64,000 bases of DNA, from positions 3,904,001 through 3,968,000 of the forward strand of contig OZ252100.1 in the NCBI GenBank assembly GCA_965248435.1, given 5' to 3'. The position numbers and the translations under genes are program-made. Positions within the stretch are counted from its first letter, which is position 1; every line of letters begins with the position of its first letter. The DNA is from Candidatus Latescibacterota bacterium (GTDB taxonomy: Bacteria > Latescibacterota > UBA2968 > GCA-2709665). Under the pieces are notes generated by a model. That model did not search any database. It saw nothing but the letters and a program-made list of their open reading frames with translations, and was not told the origin of the DNA. Below, in pieces: positions 715-28,334 of this stretch.

Positions 715-741
715 TGCCGTGGATCGAAAAATCAAAACACG

Positions 742-861
742 GGCCCTCACCCTGCCTCGCTTCGCTCGGCATCCCTCTCCCATATATGGGAGAGGGAAAA
801 AGCATCTTGCTATACCCTCTCCCCTCTCCCACGTGTGGGAGAGGGGCCGGGGGTGAGGGCC
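742..861. repeat. Palindromic REP-like element family B (GGCCCTCACCC...CCCTCTCCC/GGGAGAGGG...GGGTGAGGGCC), copy 1
   Basis: Terminal inverted repeats plus two internal hairpins; near-identical copies at 16253 and 18240. Confidence 0.85.
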
Positions 862-874
862 TTAAGCCTATGAA

Positions 875-915
875 TTTTCGAACCCCGGTACGTGGTTCCC
901 GGTACCCGAAATCAG
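875..915. repeat. Heptamer right arm R (TTTTCGAACCCCGG...GGTACCCGAAATC)
   Basis: Matches the R arms at 2843, 5587, 9831 and 22126. Confidence 0.75.
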
Positions 916-2693: not shown

Positions 2694-2898
2694 CCGGGTA
2701 CCGGGAAAGCAAAACACGGGTACCGGGTGCCGCAAAAGAACGGGTCACCGAATCGCGGATTGCAGATTTCGGAATGAAAAGCAGAATCGATTGAGGCAAG
2801 TAAATTACGAAACGAATAATCAATCGCGAATCCGGAACTGAATTTTCGATCCCCGGACCCCGGTACCCGGTACCCGGTACCCGGTACCCGAAATCGGG
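2694..2898. repeat. 'Empty' heptamer element: left arm L (CGGGTACCGGGAAAGCAAAACACGGGTACCGGG) + spacer + right arm R ((GGTACCC)n)
   Basis: Same arms as flank the four-helix-bundle gene at 9430; inverted relative to each other. Confidence 0.85.
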
Positions 2899-5423: not shown

Positions 5424-5620
5424 CGGGTACCGGGAAATCAAAAACACGGGTACCGGGTACCGTAAAACCGTGGATCGCGGATCGTGAATCGTGGATCGGA
5501 AAGCGGCCAGATAGAACGCGGCCGTGCATCTGGTAGGAGCCGCCTCCCGGCGGCGAATCTTCACGTGGTAATCGTGTTGGTGATGGTTCGAACCCCGGTA
5601 CCCTGTACCCGGTACCCGGA
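5424..5620. repeat. 'Empty' heptamer element (L arm, GTGGATC heptamers, one GTAG-type REP at about 5533-5556, R arm)
   Basis: L at 5424-5462, R at 5587-5620, GTAGGAGCCGCCTCCCGGCGGCGAA in between. Confidence 0.8.
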
Positions 5621-5635
5621 ATTCAGTGATGCGAA

Positions 5636-7620: not shown

Positions 7621-7755
7621 AATTGCGGATTGCGGAATGGAAGACCGGGTATCGGGAAAGCAAAACACGGGTACCGGGTACCGTAGAATCTGTATCTCAC
7701 GAATACTGCAATAGTGGAGACCGTTCGTCTCGCCTGTCCCGAGCTTGTCGAGGGG
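7621..7755. repeat. Repeat cluster: GCGGATT heptamers, solo L arm (7646-7683), GCCTGTCCCGAGCTTGTCGAGGG micro-hairpin (7732-7755)
   Basis: Each unit recurs elsewhere in the window. Confidence 0.7.
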
Positions 7756-7920: not shown

Positions 7921-9348
7921 GTGTCAACAAAGCGGCCCAACGTAGTGCTGATCATGTGCGACGAGCTCCGCCACGACTGCGGCGGTTTCGCGAATCACCC
8001 GCTGGTTCGCACACCGAATCTGGACCGGCTCGCCGAGAACGGCGTCGTGTTCGAGAACGCGTATTGCGCGACGCCGGTCTGCTCACCGGCGCGAGCGAGC
8101 TGGCTGACCGGGCTCTACCCGCACGCGCACGGTCAGCTCGTCAATTACGGACCCGGAAGGCTGCTCGGGCGGCCGGGGTCCGAGATGCGCTCGGACTGTG
8201 TCACGATCGGGGACGTGCTCAAACGTGAGGGCTACCGATGCGGCATCGTGGGTCCGTGGCATCTGGGGCAAGACCATCAACCCCAGCACGGGTTCACCGA
8301 TTTCTGGCGGGCGGTGGGTTACCAGGGCGACAACCCGGATCCCTGGCAGGAGTACCTCAAACGGGAATCGGTGCCTGACATCAATTCCGCGGGCACGATG
8401 ACGGACGACGGCTTTATGATGAAATACGCAACGCTGACCGACCCGCGCCAGCAGCGGACCACGTGGATGATCGATCGCACATTCGACTTCCTGGACGGGC
8501 GGGACGACGGGGCGTTCTTTTTGTTCCTCAGCGTGAAGGACCCGCACCCGCCCATCATCGTTGCCCCCGAACTCGTGGAGATGTATCCGGAAGACCGGAT
8601 CGAGTTGCCGCCCACTTGGGCCGATCCGCTGGACGGCCGGCCGGACTACCTGCACGCGGAGGTCGGTCGACTGAAACCGGATGTGAAGGAAGCGACCTTC
8701 AAGCGGATGATGGCGCACTACTTCGCGCTGGTCACGCATATCGACCGAGAAGTGGGACGGCTGATCGACCGGCTTCGAGCGCTGGATCTTCTGGATCATA
8801 CGATCGTTGCGTTCATCAGCGATCACGGCGAGATGCTGGGCGACCACGGGTTTACGAGCAAGCGGGTATTCTACGAGGGCTCCGTGAGGGTGCCCTGCAT
8901 CCTTTCGTGGCCGGACGGGCTCCCTGCAGGCCTCCGAATCGGGACCCCCCTCGGAGGGGTGGACCTGATGCCGACGCTGCTGGAGCTGGCGGGTGCCGAG
9001 CTGGAGTCGGAGATTGACGGCCGCAGCGTCGCAGAGCCTGTGGCCGGCGGTCGTGAGCCGGACCCGGTTCCGGTCTTCTCAGAGATTTCATCCTGGAAGG
9101 CCATCTCGGCACTGAGCGAGGATCCGGCGGAGCTGGCGGTCCAGATGATGGTCCTCGACGGCTCGTGGAAATACATACGGAACCGGTTCGACGAGGACGA
9201 GCTCTACGACCTCGAGACGGATCCGAACGAGATCACTAATCTCGCCGGGCAACCCGAGCAGGCGGATCGCATCTCGGATCTGCGAGAGAAAATCCGATCG
9301 ATGCTGGGCCGCACGGGTCCGGGACCTTATGACTGGTGCCTTTCATGA
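7921..9348 (+). CDS. Sulfatase (choline-sulfatase-like), Cys-type
   Basis: RPNVVLIMCD, TPNLDRLA, CSPARAS (CxPxR), SDHGEMLGDHG, ELYDLETDPNE; GTG start with AAGGAG RBS. Confidence 0.92.
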   Translation: MSTKRPNVVLIMCDELRHDCGGFANHPLVRTPNLDRLAENGVVFENAYCATPVCSPARASWLTGLYPHAHGQLVNYGPGRLLGRPGSEMRSDCVTIGDVLKREGYRCGIVGPWHLGQDHQPQHGFTDFWRAVGYQGDNPDPWQEYLKRESVPDINSAGTMTDDGFMMKYATLTDPRQQRTTWMIDRTFDFLDGRDDGAFFLFLSVKDPHPPIIVAPELVEMYPEDRIELPPTWADPLDGRPDYLHAEVGRLKPDVKEATFKRMMAHYFALVTHIDREVGRLIDRLRALDLLDHTIVAFISDHGEMLGDHGFTSKRVFYEGSVRVPCILSWPDGLPAGLRIGTPLGGVDLMPTLLELAGAELESEIDGRSVAEPVAGGREPDPVPVFSEISSWKAISALSEDPAELAVQMMVLDGSWKYIRNRFDEDELYDLETDPNEITNLAGQPEQADRISDLREKIRSMLGRTGPGPYDWCLS

Positions 9349-9353
9349 GGGAA

Positions 9354-9879
9354 CGGGTACCGGGAATCAAACACGGGTACCGGGGATCGGGTACCGGGTA
9401 CCGCAAGAATCAGTTCTGAGACAGGAGATATGAACGTAAAGAGCTACAAGGACCTGGAGGTATGGAGAAAGGGTATTGAGATTGTAGATCTCGTGTATGA
9501 TATCACGGCTCAGTTTCCGAAGGAAGAAACGTATGGTTTGGCTGCGCATATGCAAAAAACGGCGATCTCCATACCATCCAACATTGCAGAGGGCCATGCC
9601 CGACAGCACACCAGAGAGTATCAGCAGTTCTGTCACATCGCGTTGGGTTCGTGTGCTGAATTGGCAACACAGTTGACGATCGCAGAACGACGTAGTTATG
9701 TGTGTGGTGAAAACCTATCGAAATTGGAGGAGGAATTGGACCACGAGACTCGAATGCTCCACAACTTGATAAAGAGTCTTAAGGATAAGTCGCGCTAGGA
9801 ATCTCAAATTTGAAATCAGGACAAATTGGTTTTTCGAACCCCGGACCCCGGTACCCGGTACCCGGTACCCAAAATCGGG
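9354..9879 (+). mobile_element. Putative four-helix-bundle cassette bounded by inverted heptamer arms L (9354-9403) and R (9831-9879)
   Basis: (CGGGTAC)n on the left and (GTACCCG)n on the right of a single AT-richer gene; gene-less versions occur elsewhere. Mobility is inferred. Confidence 0.55.
9430..9798 (+). CDS. Four helix bundle protein (23S rRNA IVP-like family)
   Basis: SYKDLEVWRK, FPKEETYGL, SIPSNIAEG, IALGSCAELATQL motifs; AGGAG RBS. Confidence 0.92.
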   Translation: MNVKSYKDLEVWRKGIEIVDLVYDITAQFPKEETYGLAAHMQKTAISIPSNIAEGHARQHTREYQQFCHIALGSCAELATQLTIAERRSYVCGENLSKLEEELDHETRMLHNLIKSLKDKSR

Positions 9880-9918
9880 TAGCTGACCACTTGGTGGCGA
9901 TGAGGAGGGCTATACAAG

Positions 9919-11424
9919 ATGAGGTTGGAAGTTCCCGGCTCGGAACTGATCGTGAACATCGGGACGCGAAAGCAGCTGTTCATCGATGACTATATCCTCG
10001 AGCGGAGTCGATGGATCACGCCCCGACTCGCCGAGACGGCTCGCTACATTCAGCCCCCGGCGCGAGACCGGAGCGATCTGGACGGATGGACGGAGGGGGT
10101 GGATCGGATCGCGGGAGACGTTCCGGGTCACCTGATTCGGGCGACATCCTTCGTGACGCGGACCCTGAATCAGCCTCAGCGGTTCGAGGGCAACCCGGTC
10201 ATGAAGCGTGCCTATCCGTGGGAGGGGAAGTCAGGGCCGTGGCCGACGAGCATCATCTACGACGAAGAGGAAGGCATCTGGAAGATGTGGTACAATGGCC
10301 TGACCCTGGAGGACGTCCCGGTCGAAAGGTTTCTCTACAGGTGTCTCTACGCCACCTCCAAGGACGGCATCAGCTGGGACCGGTCGCCCCTGGGCCTGCA
10401 CAAGGACGAAGACGGCAACGATACGAACGTCTTCTACTGGGGCAAGGGACAGTATATCCTCAAGGACAAAGAGGCCGATCCTTCCAGGCGGTACAAGATG
10501 GTCTACTCCACGCGAGGAAAGGAGGGGCTGCAGCAACCGATGGTCCAGCATTCCCCGGACGGCCTTCACTGGACGGAGGATCCCGGGCCCTTTAGCCACG
10601 GCCGTGGAGATGAAAACCTGAGCGTGATGTATGACCCGGTGAGCAAGAAGTATGTCGGGATCTGCCGCAACGTCTATCCTAAACCGATGCTGGTCCACAG
10701 GACGGAACGATCCATCTTCAGGATGCAGAGCAATGATCTGATCCACTGGTCCACACCCCTGCCGATCATCGACAGGGACGAGCTGGATCCGCTGGATTTG
10801 GACTTCGAGGGGATGTGGGGGATGTACTATGAGGGCATGTACCTGGGCTTCCTGAGGGTCAGCCACACCGCGCCCAGCTCGATGGACAGCTGGTTCGCCC
10901 ACAGCAGAGACGGGTTCCACTGGCAGAGGCCGAGGACCGGGCCGTTCTTTACCTGGGGACCGGAGGGGAGCTGGGACTCGAAATCGGTGTCGATCTTGAC
11001 CCACCCGAATCGGGTGGGCGACGAGCTCTGGGTCTACTATTCGGGGTCGAACCACGAAGACACGGCTGTTGGGCTGGCCAAGCTGCGTCTGGACGGGTTC
11101 GTGTCGATCGATGCCCCTCCCAACACTCGCCATCCGAAGAGCAGCCCGGCCACGCTGATGACGAAGCCCCTCTACTCTCCCGGCAATCGGCTGGTGATCA
11201 ATGCGGAAGCTCCCGAGGGCAGTATCGAGGCCGAGTTGTTGAGCGTGGATGGCGTCGTCATCGATGGTTACTCGAGGGAAGACTGCGACAGCTTCAGAGG
11301 AGACAGCCCCGCGCATACCGTCACGTGGAAAGGGAGGGGGGATATAGGAGAGGGTATTCCTGTGAGGATTCGTTTTTATATGGAGAAGGCGAAGCTTTAC
11401 GCATTGCAGATTCCCAAGACGTAA
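9919..11424 (+). CDS. GH32/GH43-like beta-propeller glycosidase-like protein
   Basis: KQLFIDD, GNPVM, YATSKDGISW, SPDGLHW, SRDGFHW, LRLDGFVS motifs. Confidence 0.75.
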   Translation: MRLEVPGSELIVNIGTRKQLFIDDYILERSRWITPRLAETARYIQPPARDRSDLDGWTEGVDRIAGDVPGHLIRATSFVTRTLNQPQRFEGNPVMKRAYPWEGKSGPWPTSIIYDEEEGIWKMWYNGLTLEDVPVERFLYRCLYATSKDGISWDRSPLGLHKDEDGNDTNVFYWGKGQYILKDKEADPSRRYKMVYSTRGKEGLQQPMVQHSPDGLHWTEDPGPFSHGRGDENLSVMYDPVSKKYVGICRNVYPKPMLVHRTERSIFRMQSNDLIHWSTPLPIIDRDELDPLDLDFEGMWGMYYEGMYLGFLRVSHTAPSSMDSWFAHSRDGFHWQRPRTGPFFTWGPEGSWDSKSVSILTHPNRVGDELWVYYSGSNHEDTAVGLAKLRLDGFVSIDAPPNTRHPKSSPATLMTKPLYSPGNRLVINAEAPEGSIEAELLSVDGVVIDGYSREDCDSFRGDSPAHTVTWKGRGDIGEGIPVRIRFYMEKAKLYALQIPKT

Positions 11425-11485: not shown

Positions 11486-11672
11486 TTCGCCAGCAGGAGC
11501 TGGCCACGAAAATGTTATGCCAACACCGTGAATCTTTTTGTCGCCAACGGGAGTTGGCTCCTACCGGATAATATTTCCAAATTCATTCGGTAGGAGCCGT
11601 CTCCTGACGGCGAACAATTTGATCACGGTGGGTTGTCTCTGACAACCGTACCCGCCGCCTCCCGGCGGCGAA
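11486..11672. repeat. 187-bp REP cluster (four GTAG-type REP units, inverted pair in the centre), copy 1
   Basis: TCGCCAACGGGAGTTGGCTCCTAC ... GTAGGAGCCGTCTCCTGACGGCGAA; near-identical to 14773-14959. Confidence 0.85.
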
Positions 11673-11700
11673 TATCGGATGATAAGGAGGGTCATACCAG

Positions 11701-13203
11701 ATGAGATTAGAAATCCCTGGTTCAGAACTGATCGTGAACGTCGGGACGCAAAAGCAGCTGTTCATAGATGACTATATCATCGAGCGGTCGCGGTGGATCA
11801 CGCCCCGACTCGCCGAGACGGCCCGATATATTCAGCCCCCCGCGCGAGATCGCAGCGATCTGGACGGATGGACGGAGGGGGTGGATCGGATCGTGGGAGA
11901 CGTCCCGGGTCACCTGATCCGGGCGACCAGCTTCGTGACGCGGTCCCTGAATCATCCGGAGCGGTTTGAAGGCAACCCGGTCATGAAGCGTGCCTATCCG
12001 TGGGAGGGGGAGTCTGCGCCGTGGCCGACGAGCATCATCTACGACGAAGAGGAAGACATCTGGAAGATGTGGTACAACGGCCTGACCACGGTGGACGTTC
12101 CGAAGCGGGCGTGGCATTATCGGTGTCTCTACGCCACCTCCAAGGACGGCATCAACTGGGATCGGTCGCCCCTGGGGCTGCACAGGGACGAAGAGGGCAA
12201 CGATACGAACGTCTTCTACTGGGGAAAAGGGCAGTATATCTTCAAGGACAAAGAGGCCGATCCTTCCAGACGGTACAAGATGGTCTACTCCACGCGAAGC
12301 AAAGAGGGGCTGCAGCACCCGATGGTCCAGCATTCCCCCGACGGCCTTCACTGGATAGAGGACCCCGGCCCTTTCAGCCACGGACGTGGGGATGAAAACC
12401 TCGGGGTGATGTATGACCCCGTAAGTAAGAAGTATGTCGGGATCTGCCGAAACGTCTATCCTAAACCGGTCCTGGTCCACAGGACGGAACGGTCCATCTA
12501 TAGGATGCAGAGCAATGACCTGGTTCACTGGTCCACGCCCGTGCCCATCATCGACAGGGACGAGCTGGATCCGATGGATATGGACTTCGAGGGGATGGGG
12601 GGGATGTTTTATGAGGGCATGTACCTGGGCTTCCTGAGAACCAGCCACACCGCGCCCACCAAGATGGACAGCTGGTTCGCCCACAGCAGAGACGGGTTCC
12701 ACTGGCAGAGGCCGAGGACCGGGCCGTTCTTTACCTGGGGACCGGAGGGGAGCTGGGACTCGAAATCGGTGACGATCTCGACCCCGAAACGGGTCGGGGA
12801 CGAGCTCTGGGTCTTCTATTCGGGGTCGGACGACGAAGACACGGCTGTTGGGCTGGCGAAGCTGCGGCTGGACGGGTTCGTGTCGATCGATTCCCCTCCC
12901 AACACTCGCCACCCGAAGAACAACCCGGCCACGCTGATGACGAAGCCCCTCTACTCTCCGGGCAATCGACTCGTGATCAATGCCGAGGCCAACCAGGGCA
13001 GTATTGAGGCCGAGTTGCTGAGCGTGGATGGTTTCGTGCTCGATGGTTATTCGAGGGAAGACTGCGACAGCTTCAGCGGAGACAGCCCCCCGCATACCTT
13101 CACGTGGAAAGGAAATGCGGATCTAGGAGAGTGTCTTCCTGTGAGGGTTCGTCTTTATATGGAGAAGGCGAAACTCTACGCGTTGCAGATACCTCAGGGT
13201 TAA
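11701..13203 (+). CDS. GH32/GH43-like beta-propeller protein, close tandem paralog of 9919-11424
   Basis: Colinear and highly similar to the upstream gene over its whole length. Confidence 0.75.
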   Translation: MRLEIPGSELIVNVGTQKQLFIDDYIIERSRWITPRLAETARYIQPPARDRSDLDGWTEGVDRIVGDVPGHLIRATSFVTRSLNHPERFEGNPVMKRAYPWEGESAPWPTSIIYDEEEDIWKMWYNGLTTVDVPKRAWHYRCLYATSKDGINWDRSPLGLHRDEEGNDTNVFYWGKGQYIFKDKEADPSRRYKMVYSTRSKEGLQHPMVQHSPDGLHWIEDPGPFSHGRGDENLGVMYDPVSKKYVGICRNVYPKPVLVHRTERSIYRMQSNDLVHWSTPVPIIDRDELDPMDMDFEGMGGMFYEGMYLGFLRTSHTAPTKMDSWFAHSRDGFHWQRPRTGPFFTWGPEGSWDSKSVTISTPKRVGDELWVFYSGSDDEDTAVGLAKLRLDGFVSIDSPPNTRHPKNNPATLMTKPLYSPGNRLVINAEANQGSIEAELLSVDGFVLDGYSREDCDSFSGDSPPHTFTWKGNADLGECLPVRVRLYMEKAKLYALQIPQG

Positions 13204-13221: not shown

Positions 13222-13321
13222 CCGGGTACCGGATACGGTAGATCGGCTACAGAGACCTGACGGTTTAGGTGCGACGCAAGCGTCGCCCCGGGGGAACCGA
13301 AACACGGGTACCGGGTACCGC
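13222..13321. repeat. Degenerate L arm with an embedded GCGACGCAAGCGTCGC hairpin
   Basis: CCGGGTACCGG...AAACACGGGTACCGGGTACCGC directly after a stop codon. Confidence 0.65.
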
Positions 13322-13623
13322 AAAGGCAGATGGTCACCACATAGGGATTGAAAGTTATTTTGGAATCCGACCTGAAGTGTTAAGTTAGAAGGAAAAAAAG
13401 GGGGGTATCTGTCTCTCATTTGCAAATTGTTGAGTTATCATACGAATAAATGATAGGTTAGGGCTTTTGTGGGCTGCAGAATGCTTGTCCTTGAAACTTG
13501 GAAGAAGAGGTCTTGCGAAGTCGTCGTACCGCAGTCCGGAACCGCGGAGGCCGGCTTCTCGTTCTGAAGCGCGACTGATCGCATGAATAAATCTCTCAGG
13601 ATTCGTCTGGTCTCCACTCAACG

Positions 13624-14772: not shown

Positions 14773-14959
14773 TTCGCCAGCAGGAGCTGGCCACGAAAAT
14801 GTTATGCCAATACCGTGAATCATTTTGTCGCCAACGGGAGTTGGCTCCTACCGGATAAAATTTCCAAATTCATTCGGTAGGAGCCGTCTCCTGACGGCGA
14901 ACCATTTGATCACGGTGTGTTGTCTCTGACAACCGTACCCGCCGCCTCCCGGCGGCGAA
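14773..14959. repeat. 187-bp REP cluster, copy 2
   Basis: Direct repeat of 11486-11672 with a few substitutions. Confidence 0.85.
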
Positions 14960-14998
14960 GGGCAAAACATCGGGTTTTGCGTCCAGGCCCGTTTGTCG

Positions 14999-16227: not shown

Positions 16228-16396
16228 CCGGGTACCGGGAAGGCAAAACACGGGCCCTCACCCTGCCTCGCGGAGTTTATCCTGAGCCTGCCGAAGGGCT
16301 CGGCATCCCTCTCCCATAAATGGGAGAGGGAACAAACATCTCGCAGAGCTTTCCTCCCCTCTCCCACGTGTGGGAGAGGGGCCGGGGGTGAGGGCC
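16228..16396. repeat. Truncated L arm fused to REP family B copy 2 (carries a 26-bp insert at 16272-16297)
   Basis: Alignment by eye with the copies at 742 and 18240. Confidence 0.85.
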
Positions 16397-18214: not shown

Positions 18215-18360
18215 CCGGGTACCGGGAAATCAAAACACGGGCCCTCACCCTGCCTCGCTTCGCTCGGCCTCCCTCTCCCATAAATGGGAGAGGGAACAAA
18301 CATCTTGCAGAGCCTTTCTCCCCTCTCCCACGTGTGGGAGAGGGGCCGGGGGTGAGGGCC
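18215..18360. repeat. Truncated L arm fused to REP family B copy 3
   Basis: Same junction CAAAACACGG|GCCCTCACCC as at 732-750 and 16244-16260. Confidence 0.85.
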
Positions 18361-19133: not shown

Positions 19134-19271
19134 AGGTGCGTGATACAATTGCAGATTGCGGATTGGGGATTGCGGATTAGGCGGTGCTGACGAGCAGTTC
19201 TGCACAGATCCTCTCGTTTGTCAACAGGAGTTGGCTATTGAAATGGCGTGTAGACCGTGGCCATCCTTTGG

Positions 19272-19440
19272 TTCGCCAACGGGAGACGGCAACGAAAATT
19301 GTGTGCCGACACCGTGAATCATTTCGTCGCCAACGGGAGTTGGCTCCTACCGTATTTGTAATCTTATAACATTGGTAAATTCAATACGCCCACAAATCCG
19401 GTAGGAGCCGTCTCCAGACGGCGAACAATCTGACTACGGC
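19272..19440. repeat. Diverged third copy of the GTAG REP cluster
   Basis: TCGCCAACGGGAGTTGGCTCCTAC ... GTAGGAGCCGTCTCCAGACGGCGAA with a longer AT-rich spacer. Confidence 0.75.
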
Positions 19441-19459
19441 TTTGAAGGAGCTGCTGGAA

Positions 19460-21973: not shown

Positions 21974-22160
21974 CGGGTACCGGGGAATCAAAACACGGGT
22001 ACCGGGGATCGGGAAAACCAAAACCAGAAATCACCGCAGAGGACGCAGAGAAAACTCGGGTAGCGGGAAACCAAAACACGGGTACCTGGGATCGGGTAAT
22101 GGCAAAATTTGGATTGAAATTGATCTTTCGAACCCCGGTACCCGGTACCCGGTACCCGAA
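21974..22160. repeat. 'Empty' heptamer element (two L arms, a CACCGCAGAGGACGCAGAG unit, R arm)
   Basis: L at 21974 and about 22057, R at 22126-22160. Confidence 0.85.
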
Positions 22161-24174: not shown

Positions 24175-24251
24175 ACGGGTACCGGGAAGGCAGAACACGG
24201 GAAGGCAGAACACGGGTACCGGGAAGGCAGAACACGGGTACCGGGTACCGC
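24175..24251. repeat. Solo L arm with internal tandem expansion of GGGAAGGCAGAACAC
   Basis: Three copies of CGGGAAGGCAGAACA interleaved with GGGTACC heptamers. Confidence 0.8.
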
Positions 24252-24364
24252 AAAACCCTGGGATCGACGTTCGTCATGTGTTTCATCGGGGACATCCTCA
24301 GTCATAGCTTATCCGTAGGGCTTCAGCGAAATCGTGTCTTTCAGGATCGCGTCTGGCATTGCTT

Positions 24365-26980: not shown

Positions 26981-27130
26981 CAATTGCGGATTGCGGATTT
27001 GGGATTGCGGAATAAAACCGGGTACCGGGAAAGCAACACAAGGGTGCCGGGGATCGGGAAAACCAAAACCAGAAATCACCGCAGAGGCCTGTCCCGGCAA
27101 TGCTTTTGAGCCGGGACGCAGAGAAAATCG
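26981..27130. repeat. Repeat cluster: GCGGATT heptamers, L arm, CGCAGAG unit split by a 28-bp hairpin insert (27087-27114)
   Basis: Compare with 21974-22055. Confidence 0.75.
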
Positions 27131-28243: not shown

Positions 28244-28334
28244 CCGGGTACCGGGAAAGCAAAACACGGGTACCGGGTACCGTAGAACCGGAGAGCCATT
28301 CAATTGCGGATTGCGGATTTGGGATTGCGGAATG
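28244..28334. repeat. Solo L arm plus GCGGATT heptamers
   Basis: CCGGGTACCGGGAAAGCAAAACACGGGTACCGGGTACCG, then CAATTGCGGATTGCGGATTTGGGATTGCGGAAT. Confidence 0.8.

Follow-up and report, generated by a model that had tools for sequence, protein, structure and literature searches.

Inverted heptamer arrays around PF05635 four-helix-bundle genes of many phyla point to an intervening-sequence-type cassette in an operon spacer of a Latescibacterota bacterium

Coxiella's 23S rRNA intervening sequence (IVS) is regarded as a selfish element, contains an S23p open reading frame (ORF) and is excised by RNase III (PMC4990558). Three tandem GACAGAT heptamers lie ahead of this ORF, their number varying among strains, and the same source cites an older proposal in which the product of the ORF is a mobility component (PMC4990558). 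ORFs of the 23S_rRNA_IVP type are described in rRNA insertions of bacteria of the candidate phyla radiation (CPR; PMC11270868) and within cas operons (PMC3936711). The corresponding family, PF05635/TIGR02436, is very large, has no assigned function and occurs in rRNA genes, cas operons (PMC3936711) and many other operons. The present analysis concerns a member of this family, a four-helix-bundle ORF lying between inverted arrays of 7-nt repeats in a 64,000-nt stretch of the genome of Candidatus Latescibacterota bacterium (hereafter the window; G000:C1:3904001-3968000 in a host genome, G000, of 5.67 Mb). It is proposed, with moderate confidence, that this locus is an IVS-type (selfish) cassette, in which a PF05635 ORF with its own ribosome-binding site stands inside inverted heptamer arms in an operon spacer.

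Tandem heptamers are also described from intergenic regions. In Xanthomonas, intergenic GGGAATC arrays lie close to the upstream ORF's 3' end and include 70-75 convergent pairs per genome, and similar arrays of GGGGAYT occur in Nostoc (PMC4692102). Heptamer arrays and TAACTGA repeats are reported for Beggiatoaceae, cyanobacteria and Bacteroidetes (PMC4679880). A term search of the accessible text of these two papers found neither the PF05635 family nor replication direction mentioned with the arrays (PMC4692102, PMC4679880). A published generalisation of heptamer arms to the PF05635 family was not found in a literature search that was thin on subscription journals and covered no supplements, heptamers beside this ORF being reported for the Coxiella IVS only; the heptamer-arm rule for the family appears not to be in print.

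The 122-amino-acid protein matches PF05635 (23S_rRNA_IVP; E 7.2e-34, 116.7 bits, cut-off 33.8) and TIGR02436 (E 7.7e-32, 109.8 bits, cut-off 24), and belongs to the family as both matches exceed the curated cut-offs. Its nearest solved chain is 2GSC (XCC0516 of Xanthomonas; E 7e-24), an entry holding five chains, and the 2GSC protein is described as a homopentamer (PMC4990558). The ORF is bracketed by an upstream arm (L) and an inverted downstream arm (R), as a sequence-only reading of this DNA had claimed (Table 1). When positions 9345-9890 are folded as RNA, L and R form a stem of about 24 bp in the minimum-free-energy and centroid structures alike (z -3.27), and none of 100 shuffles gave an equally good fold. 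The unit occupies the spacer between two co-directional protein-coding genes, a sulfatase gene (PF00884) upstream and a gene for a 501-amino-acid protein without a Pfam match downstream, whose start lies about 37 nt beyond the end of R. The ORF is compositionally foreign at this locus, with a GC content of 47.5% against about 62-65% in the surroundings and a third-codon-position GC content (GC3) of 0.57 against 0.75-0.80 for the neighbouring genes. A domain search of the ORF detected no transposase or integrase domain in the arm-ORF-arm unit. A search of the window with Rfam families at gathering thresholds gave no match, and the unit is thus not in rRNA. The host genome contains one RNase III gene (E 1.4e-33).

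Homology between the PF05635 and Avd families is noted in PMC10053308, and the ORF gives weak matches to bAvd (PF22296, 24.5 bits) and DivGenRetAVD (NF033474, 25.7 bits), as would fit an Avd-like accessory protein of a diversity-generating retroelement (DGR) that works with a reverse transcriptase. The respective cut-offs are 40 and 80 bits, the whole genome yielded 0 matches to the reverse transcriptase family RVT_1 and no template/variable repeat pair was seen; a DGR role is considered highly improbable.

Judged by genome comparison, inverted heptamer arms are a general rule for PF05635 genes across many phyla. A scan with a 6-sequence query alignment, one genome per species, gave at least 602 relatives among the matches listed. 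The best 80 loci were taken (76 usable); they come from Planctomycetota, Bacteroidota, Acidobacteriota, Patescibacteria, Desulfobacterota, Nitrospirota, Clostridia, Cyanobacteria, Gammaproteobacteria and Methanophagales. An inverted-arm score, obtained by aligning the 150 nt upstream of each gene with the reverse-complemented 150-nt downstream flank, reached 25 or more at 43 of the 76 loci and at 4 of 197 neighbour-gene controls; 50 of the 76 loci, against 61 of 1520 controls, exceeded the 95th percentile of random-position controls. Period-7 arrays numbered 75 in 22,800 nt of flank and 106 in 329,656 nt elsewhere, an approximately 10-fold enrichment. A tandem array of any period was found in a flank at 64 loci, a period-7 array at 47, and period-7 arrays on both sides at 23. 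Among 110 pooled loci, 34 carried period-7 arrays on both sides, and at 20 of these the upstream and downstream units were reverse complements of each other (distance of at most 1; null 22/1122). Of 71 loci, 53 had the gene in sense orientation to both neighbours and one had it antisense to both; the median gaps to the neighbours were 57 nt and 46 nt. The units lie within strings of genes, in spacers that hold little besides the arms. The sequence-only reading had asked for a test of whether four-helix genes of other genomes are flanked by inverted 7-mer arrays, and these results are in favour of it.

The 7-nt period is common across phyla and the heptamer sequence varies by lineage. The rotation-minimised distance between heptamers averaged 1.22 for 18 pairs at 75% protein identity or more, and was 3.4-3.8, about background, below 60%. 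That heptamer type follows protein clade, which the same reading had also proposed to test, therefore applies to close relatives and fails below about 60% identity; in these sequence comparisons, heptamer type tracks the protein only among close kin and is inseparable from shared ancestry. A universal period combined with lineage-specific sequence would be expected if the protein measured the array, whereas heptamer similarity at background below 60% identity speaks against such a protein ruler. Within the family and order of the host, PF05635 is patchy, occurring in 17 of 31 genomes (G000 included) with 1-5 matches per positive relative. The 27 loci of these relatives carry lineage-specific flanking repeats, and many of these are inverted heptamers, such as AGCTGAN, CAGTGGC, GGGGCTN and GGACCAC.

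Comparison of filled and empty sites indicates that arm, ORF and arm are gained or lost as one piece, with the arm ends as outer borders, in three other genera. In the genus g6, the unit interrupts a gene for a PF01555 DNA methylase in two genomes (G021 and G023), at a point flanked by ...GEPDI and VHGVDVFHP.... In nine other genomes this place is taken by 45 nt (15 codons) free of heptamers. The search covered 21 genomes, nine of which yielded no match. The split falls at a 15-codon loop of the methylase (split form at L040 in G021 and L041 in G023, uninterrupted form at L063-L068). The downstream methylase fragment is an open frame in both G021 and G023, which suggests that the split gene is still under selection. 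In Flavobacterium, an orthologous spacer of 41 genomes is filled in 9 by a contiguous match and in 2 by a diverged one, and is empty in 26, with the flanks 2-121 nt apart. The Flavobacterium genome G067 has an empty orthologous site and a 79%-identical copy on another contig beside different genes; the match is confined to the arms and ORF, and the heptamer is TAGTGAT as at the orthologous filled sites.

Of 31 Pseudoxanthomonas genomes, 3 carry the unit in one spacer. The flanks of this spacer lie 25-165 nt apart in 10 genomes, the one empty spacer inspected having no heptamers, and 456-2043 nt apart with other content in 15, an unrelated ORF being present in both of two checked. This spacer (L155-L160) has at least four states in the 31 genomes, namely 25-165 nt, about 450-770 nt, about 2.0 kb and the PF05635 unit, and is a local hot spot of spacer turnover. 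At the inspected junctions of the three genera no target-site duplication was found, the unit replacing resident sequence. Between orthologous units the two arms change together: both carry CAGTGGC in G021 and AGTGGCG/AGTGGTT in G023, and both carry GGGGACC in G042 and CGGGACC in G105. The unit thus behaves as a mobile element in that it is present or absent as a whole at conserved sites and has a copy at a second locus. The polymorphism between filled and empty sites that the sequence-only reading had called for is accordingly seen in these three genera, whereas the window's own clade provides a deletion remnant and a block duplication only (see below).

If the locus is an IVS-type cassette, the unit would be co-transcribed with the host operon, and RNase III would cut the L/R stem as published for the Coxiella 23S rRNA IVS. 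Processing of the stem by RNase III is probable. Such cutting would render an insertion harmless, so that it could be tolerated not only in rRNA helices but also in operon spacers and even where a protein gene encodes a surface loop. The four-helix protein, related to a homopentamer, is the obvious candidate for an arm-binding factor. In the host genome, units with GGTACC-type arms decay in place, giving truncated ORFs and, it appears, ORF-less L+R hairpins.

Several observations weigh against this explanation. The Coxiella ORF is thought to be untranslated and decaying (PMC4990558), which argues against an essential role of the protein there. Co-transcription and RNase III cutting are themselves inferred; the sequencing runs found, one metatranscriptome with a small share and four of unspecified kind, are all contigs, and four of them compared with the locus showed no RNA ends. 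The single 130-nt joint in them has a side of 28 nt and probably stems from a paralogue. The filled sites represent replacement of a spacer, or of 45 nt of a gene, rather than clean insertion; allelic replacement after transfer, without dedicated mobility, could give the same pattern, and the distinction of gain from loss rests on parsimony and the intact ancestral gene, not on a species tree. In the cross-phylum sample the inverted-arm score stays below 25 at 33 of the 76 loci. Among the 34 pooled loci where both flanks hold period-7 arrays, the two units match directly (distance of at most 1) in 9. Some relatives have direct flanking repeats (TTACGTC, TTAATTC, a 45-mer; loci L033/34/45/53, L047/49/50 and L036/46). 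Of 30 loci sampled in Xanthomonadaceae, where ORF ends are poorly defined in the high-GC genomes, 9 reach an arm score of 25. One copy of the host genome, at 3836788, has an L of 15-mers lacking GGTACC units and pairs poorly with its own R. As for a possible link to the Xanthomonas GGGAATC repeats described above, a few of the Xanthomonadaceae loci carry one or two GGGAATC-like units on each side, the ORF ends there being unreliable.

The four-helix gene is the only PF05635 match in the window, as had been noted, but the whole genome has 14 matches at about 10 loci, and short tandem repeats flank every one of these loci. GGTACC-type L+R arms are found at seven copies (five intact, one truncated past residue 51 and one split). 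One other locus has ATTGCGG/CCGCAAT arms, one adjoining a tRNA has CGTCGTT/AACGACG arms, and two have other repeat units chiefly in direct orientation. In the split copy (C1 3044355-3045904), about 1.2 kb of inserted DNA separates residues 1-66 from residues 65-105. For six of the seven GGTACC-armed copies the downstream neighbour is a paralogue of the gene for a protein of about 500 amino acids, and four are also preceded by one. L, ORF, R and this gene form an unbroken DNA alignment of 70-80% identity among the copies; the ORF proteins are 77-88% and the downstream paralogues 65-82% identical. The continuous identity through the unit and the downstream gene therefore indicates old block duplication, so that the GGTACC-armed clade, as judged by these alignments, multiplied together with its downstream gene and not by recent transposition. 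The family of about 500 amino acids has at least 12 paralogues without a Pfam match, which start with MRLxxPGSELIVNIGT... and frequently stand in tandem in sulfatase-rich clusters (window 9919-11424 and 11701-13203; G000 3021511-3048224, 3725087-3728693, 3836764-3840491 and 3899266-3904714).

L and R were located with nhmmer profiles trained on the window copies, with a genome-wide cut of E <= 0.01, giving 172 L and 16 R matches. Of the R matches, 4 enclose intact ORFs, 2 surround broken ones, and about 6 pair with an L that lies 89-199 nt upstream. At 3022871 there is an intact copy whose R is not among the scored matches. In the window there are 12 L and 5 R matches, all on the + strand (starts in Table 1), and the double heptamer GGGTACCGGGTACC with at most one mismatch occurs 17 times, compared with a mean of 0.04 in 100 shuffles, none of which reached 17. 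The L unit is a 22-nt composite. Each L copy of the window follows a + strand stop codon, either immediately or with another heptamer array between, as had been stated. The profiles also reproduced the three ORF-less L+R pairs of the sequence-only reading and its R with a partial L near 730-915. They found its solo L copies as well, with two corrections: the copy placed at 13222 is weak, the scored match being at 13293, and the copy at 24175 is an array. The ORF-less pairs of the window fold into long hairpins.

Table 1. The four-helix-bundle unit and the arm copies in the window (position 1 is the first nucleotide of the window)
Feature	Position	Strand	Details
PF05635/TIGR02436 four-helix-bundle ORF	9430..9798	+	122 amino acids; AGGAG ribosome-binding site upstream
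L arm	9354..9408	+	G-rich array of CGGGTACC-type units with CAAACA spacer; begins 5 nt past the sulfatase stop
R arm	9828..9882	+	TTTTCGAACCCCGG(ACCCCG)(GTACCCG)n AAATCGGG; C-rich heptamers inverted relative to L; nhmmer match starts at 9833
ORF-less L+R pair	2695..2897	+	L 2695-2737, R 2845-2897; long hairpin fold
ORF-less L+R pair	5424..5622	+	L 5424-5468, R 5581-5622; loop holds a CGTGGAT array and a REP-like palindrome
ORF-less pair	21974..22160	+	two L units, 21974-22008 and 22057-22091; R 22120-22160
R arm with L remnant only	871..912	+	remnant CAAAACACGGG at about 731-743, broken by a MITE-like element
Solo L	7646..7689	+	preceded by an ATTGCGG array; orthologous site of G001 lacks the entire spacer
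Partial solo L	13293..13324	+	nhmmer match
Solo L	16229..16254	+	cut by a MITE-like insertion; orthologous site of G001 has an L array
Solo L	18216..18241	+	cut by a MITE-like insertion; orthologous site of G001 lacks L
Solo L array	24175..24256	+	15- and 22-nt units; best-scoring unit at 24213
Solo L	27019..27051	+	preceded by an ATTGCGG array
Solo L	28245..28288	+	followed by an ATTGCGG array

Elements resembling MITEs (miniature transposable elements with inverted repeats), about 120-145 nt long, lie at window positions 741-861, 16252-16396 and 18239-18360. They have terminal inverted repeats GGCCCTCACCC...GGGTGAGGGCC and two inner palindromes, CTCTCCCATAAATGGGAGAG and CTCTCCCACGTGTGGGAGAG, and all three window copies enter the L unit at one identical point, behind CAAAACACGG; further copies are found at G000 3780517, 3783227 and 2509391. 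A repeat resembling repetitive extragenic palindromes (REPs), TTCGCCAACGGGAGTTGGCTCCTACCG ... CGGTAGGAGCCGTCTCC.GACGGCGAA, is present in window spacers at about 5532-5558, 11500-11690, 14790-14960 and 19225-19445. It occasionally lies within an L+R loop and is expanded in tandem in a genome of the same genus, G001.

This sister genome is assembled as one contig and gave 0 matches to PF05635. At the orthologous spacer it has kept the L arm together with the initial ~45 nt of the ORF, and a degenerate R follows, an internal deletion. In the window, the pair at 21974..22160 retains the 3' tail that is otherwise found after the intact ORF. From the ORF stub and this tail, the ORF-less pairs read as in-situ deletion remnants; they look like decay products left in place, not transposed copies, and their earlier interpretation as non-autonomous copies is not supported. 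The L unit pattern has 179 matches in G000, 67 in G001 and 0 in 29 other genomes of the family or order. In orthologous spacers of G001, L is missing at the 7646 and 18216 sites and kept at the 16229, 21974 and ~700 sites, and the ATTGCGG array at 19148 is common to both genomes. These comparisons suggest that the far more numerous solo L arrays form a layer of their own, a set of intergenic heptamer-type repeats specific to the genus.

The sequence-only reading had taken the unit and the dispersed arms for an autonomous/non-autonomous pair, like the REP-associated tyrosine transposases (RAYTs) and their REP doublets forming hairpins (REPINs): the four-helix protein would bind the heptamer hairpin and spread or maintain it, with the L+R pairs and solo L as non-autonomous progeny. 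Inverted copies of a repeat bracket the gene, and in this genus the L form of the repeat is also scattered through extragenic space just past stops, L starting 0-9 nt beyond the upstream stop at 43 of the 113 L loci that have a co-oriented upstream gene. Heptamers from three of the six most abundant families of G000 adjoin 9 of its 11 PF05635 loci; these are ACCGGGT (84), GCGGATT (74) and CGTCGTT (16 arrays). TAGTGAT double units number 91 in the Flavobacterium genome G067, which has long TAGTGAT arms, and 0-21 in 40 other genomes of that genus, a comparison in which the control is void (the pattern is its own reverse) and phylogeny is uncontrolled. A heptamer period that is common across phyla, with a sequence that is not, would fit a protein ruler.

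Of that proposal the cassette unit stands. Its other part is opposed by the large excess of L over R, by the 67 L units persisting in G001 despite its lack of PF05635, by the appearance of the ORF-less pairs as deletion remnants and by the co-divergence of the copies with the neighbouring gene in block duplication. Pfam/TIGR-type searches recognise no catalytic domain in the protein, which lacks HUH/Y1. CAGTGGC doublets in G021 occur at the unit and at one other site, about control level, and heptamer similarity falls to background under 60% protein identity. The host genome has two Y1_Tnp (IS200/RAYT-like) genes (C1 2292534-2292875 and 3762381-3762722) with their own conserved hairpins, CGTGGAAATAAATTTCCACG and GCGCGGGAATTCATTCCCGCGC; these are unrelated to L and R, and a Y1 transposase was rejected as mobiliser of the unit. 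A RAYT/REPIN-like system is therefore regarded as unlikely.

The orientation of L is set by the direction of replication. Cumulative GC skew places the origin of G000 at about 3.00 Mb and the terminus at about 0.22 Mb, and 131 of the 141 merged L loci are co-directional with the replication fork. Gene calls in the orientation counts come from an ORF heuristic, and the replication result is independent of them. At 102 L loci both flanking ORFs lie on one strand. Where the flanking genes run with replication, L is sense at 84 loci and antisense at 3; where they run against it, L is antisense to the genes, and hence with replication, at 15 loci and sense at none. With flanks limited to GC3 >= 0.70, the counts are 61 (sense, with replication), 6 (antisense, genes against), 0 and 0. 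As L is antisense at 15 of 15 loci whose genes oppose replication, replication and not transcription determines its orientation. The claim that orientation never flips thus holds for the window, and the strict polarity with transcription that had been read as a hint of an RNA-level role does not hold genome-wide. Co-directional contexts make up 87 of the 102 loci, compared with 58% of heuristic ORF calls genome-wide; this excess suggests that antisense L copies are additionally disfavoured. A G-rich upstream arm (47 vs 5 of 55 loci) was also considered as an RNA-level sign and rejected, being a strand-symmetric hairpin property without polarity relative to the gene.

Replication orientation extends to other heptamer families of the genome, namely GCGGATT (70 of 74 arrays), GGATCGT (29 of 31), CGTCGTT (13 of 16) and AATCGTG (10 of 10). 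For GCGGATT, GGATCGT and AATCGTG the G/T-rich strand is the leading strand, and the sign reverses at the GC-skew origin near 3.00 Mb. The ATCTCGT and CTGCGGT families have no replication bias. ATCTCGT/ACGAGAT comprises 71 arrays with nine adjacent inverted pairs 56-241 nt apart, and these pairs may be ORF-less hairpins of another family. The commonest period among short tandem arrays of G000 is 7, with 575 arrays; period 6 has 137 and period 8 has 237.

Such abundance raises the alternative that there is no cassette at all. The arms would then be ordinary intergenic heptamer arrays from a replication-linked process, like the heptamer repeats of cyanobacteria and the GGGAATC repeats of Xanthomonas, and the gene would be a small resident of the spacer, perhaps one that regulates its downstream neighbour, with an array on each side by chance. 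The prevalence of period-7 arrays and the replication orientation of several families accord with this, as does the position of six of seven GGTACC-armed (clade-A) copies ahead of a paralogue of one gene family; for Xanthomonas and Nostoc, moreover, intergenic heptamer arrays close to the upstream ORF's 3' end, some of them in inverted pairs, are published without reference to this gene (PMC4692102). It is difficult to reconcile with arms that travel with the ORF into sites that are heptamer-free when empty, and with arm enrichment over neighbour-gene controls at PF05635 genes of phyla with unrelated heptamers. The rare R orientation is also nearly confined to PF05635 genes or their remnants. 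A chance arrangement of this kind is given a low probability.

A broader scheme would join the two sets of observations. PF05635 with inverted heptamer arms could be a widespread, transposase-less class of "IVS elements" that colonises rRNA, operon spacers and protein genes; the pentamer would read array hairpins, and by working on single-stranded DNA at the replication fork this machinery would also seed the replication-oriented, STRR-like heptamer arrays of cyanobacteria, Xanthomonas and G000. This is put forward as a speculation, conceivable yet doubtful.

If the gene normally lies inside a hairpin of inverted heptamer arrays, the puzzle of the rRNA intervening sequences would be linked to thousands of non-rRNA loci, and the cognate heptamer stem would be a concrete candidate substrate for the four-helix protein. 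The arrangement also gives a starting point for tracing how intergenic heptamer repeats arose. For annotators, an "association" of the gene with defence or other operons may merely reflect insertion.

Among known systems, the DGR accessory protein Avd shares the four-helix bundle fold, the 2GSC homologue having five chains; the window protein differs in scoring below the Avd family cut-offs and in having no reverse transcriptase in its genome. In integrons, the attC hairpin of a cassette directly follows the stop codon, is strand-specific and has a fixed relation to replication. The unit described here differs from such cassettes in that its arms bracket the ORF on both sides; no integrase or attI was seen beside it, no search aimed at them being made. 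It recalls RAYT/REP-REPIN systems in having one gene between inverted copies of a short repeat whose L form, in this genus, is scattered through extragenic space just downstream of stops. It differs in its four-helix protein without a HUH/Y1 domain and in its rare R partner (16), and the L dispersal (141 loci) is genus-specific, the arm heptamer not being dispersed in the genus g6. The short tandemly repeated repetitive (STRR) sequences of cyanobacteria are intergenic heptamer arrays. Intergenic arrays of this type resemble the arms in having tandem 7-mers in spacers, nearer the 3' end of the upstream ORF, with some convergent inverted pairs, and differ from L in its 22-nt composite unit.

The rRNA IVS of Leptospira, Coxiella and CPR bacteria differ from the window unit in their location, as the unit lies between the sulfatase gene and the 501-amino-acid protein gene and not inside an rRNA helix. 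The arms of the unit are arrays of several heptamer units, which also make up a dispersed repeat family, and cutting by RNase III is known for the Coxiella IVS and proposed here. The features held in common are a PF05635 ORF in the loop of a long inverted-repeat stem (about 24 bp here), tandem heptamers upstream of the ORF in the case of the Coxiella IVS (PMC4990558), and a sporadic distribution with ORF decay and ORF-less forms, in elements that are regarded as selfish (PMC4990558, PMC11270868).

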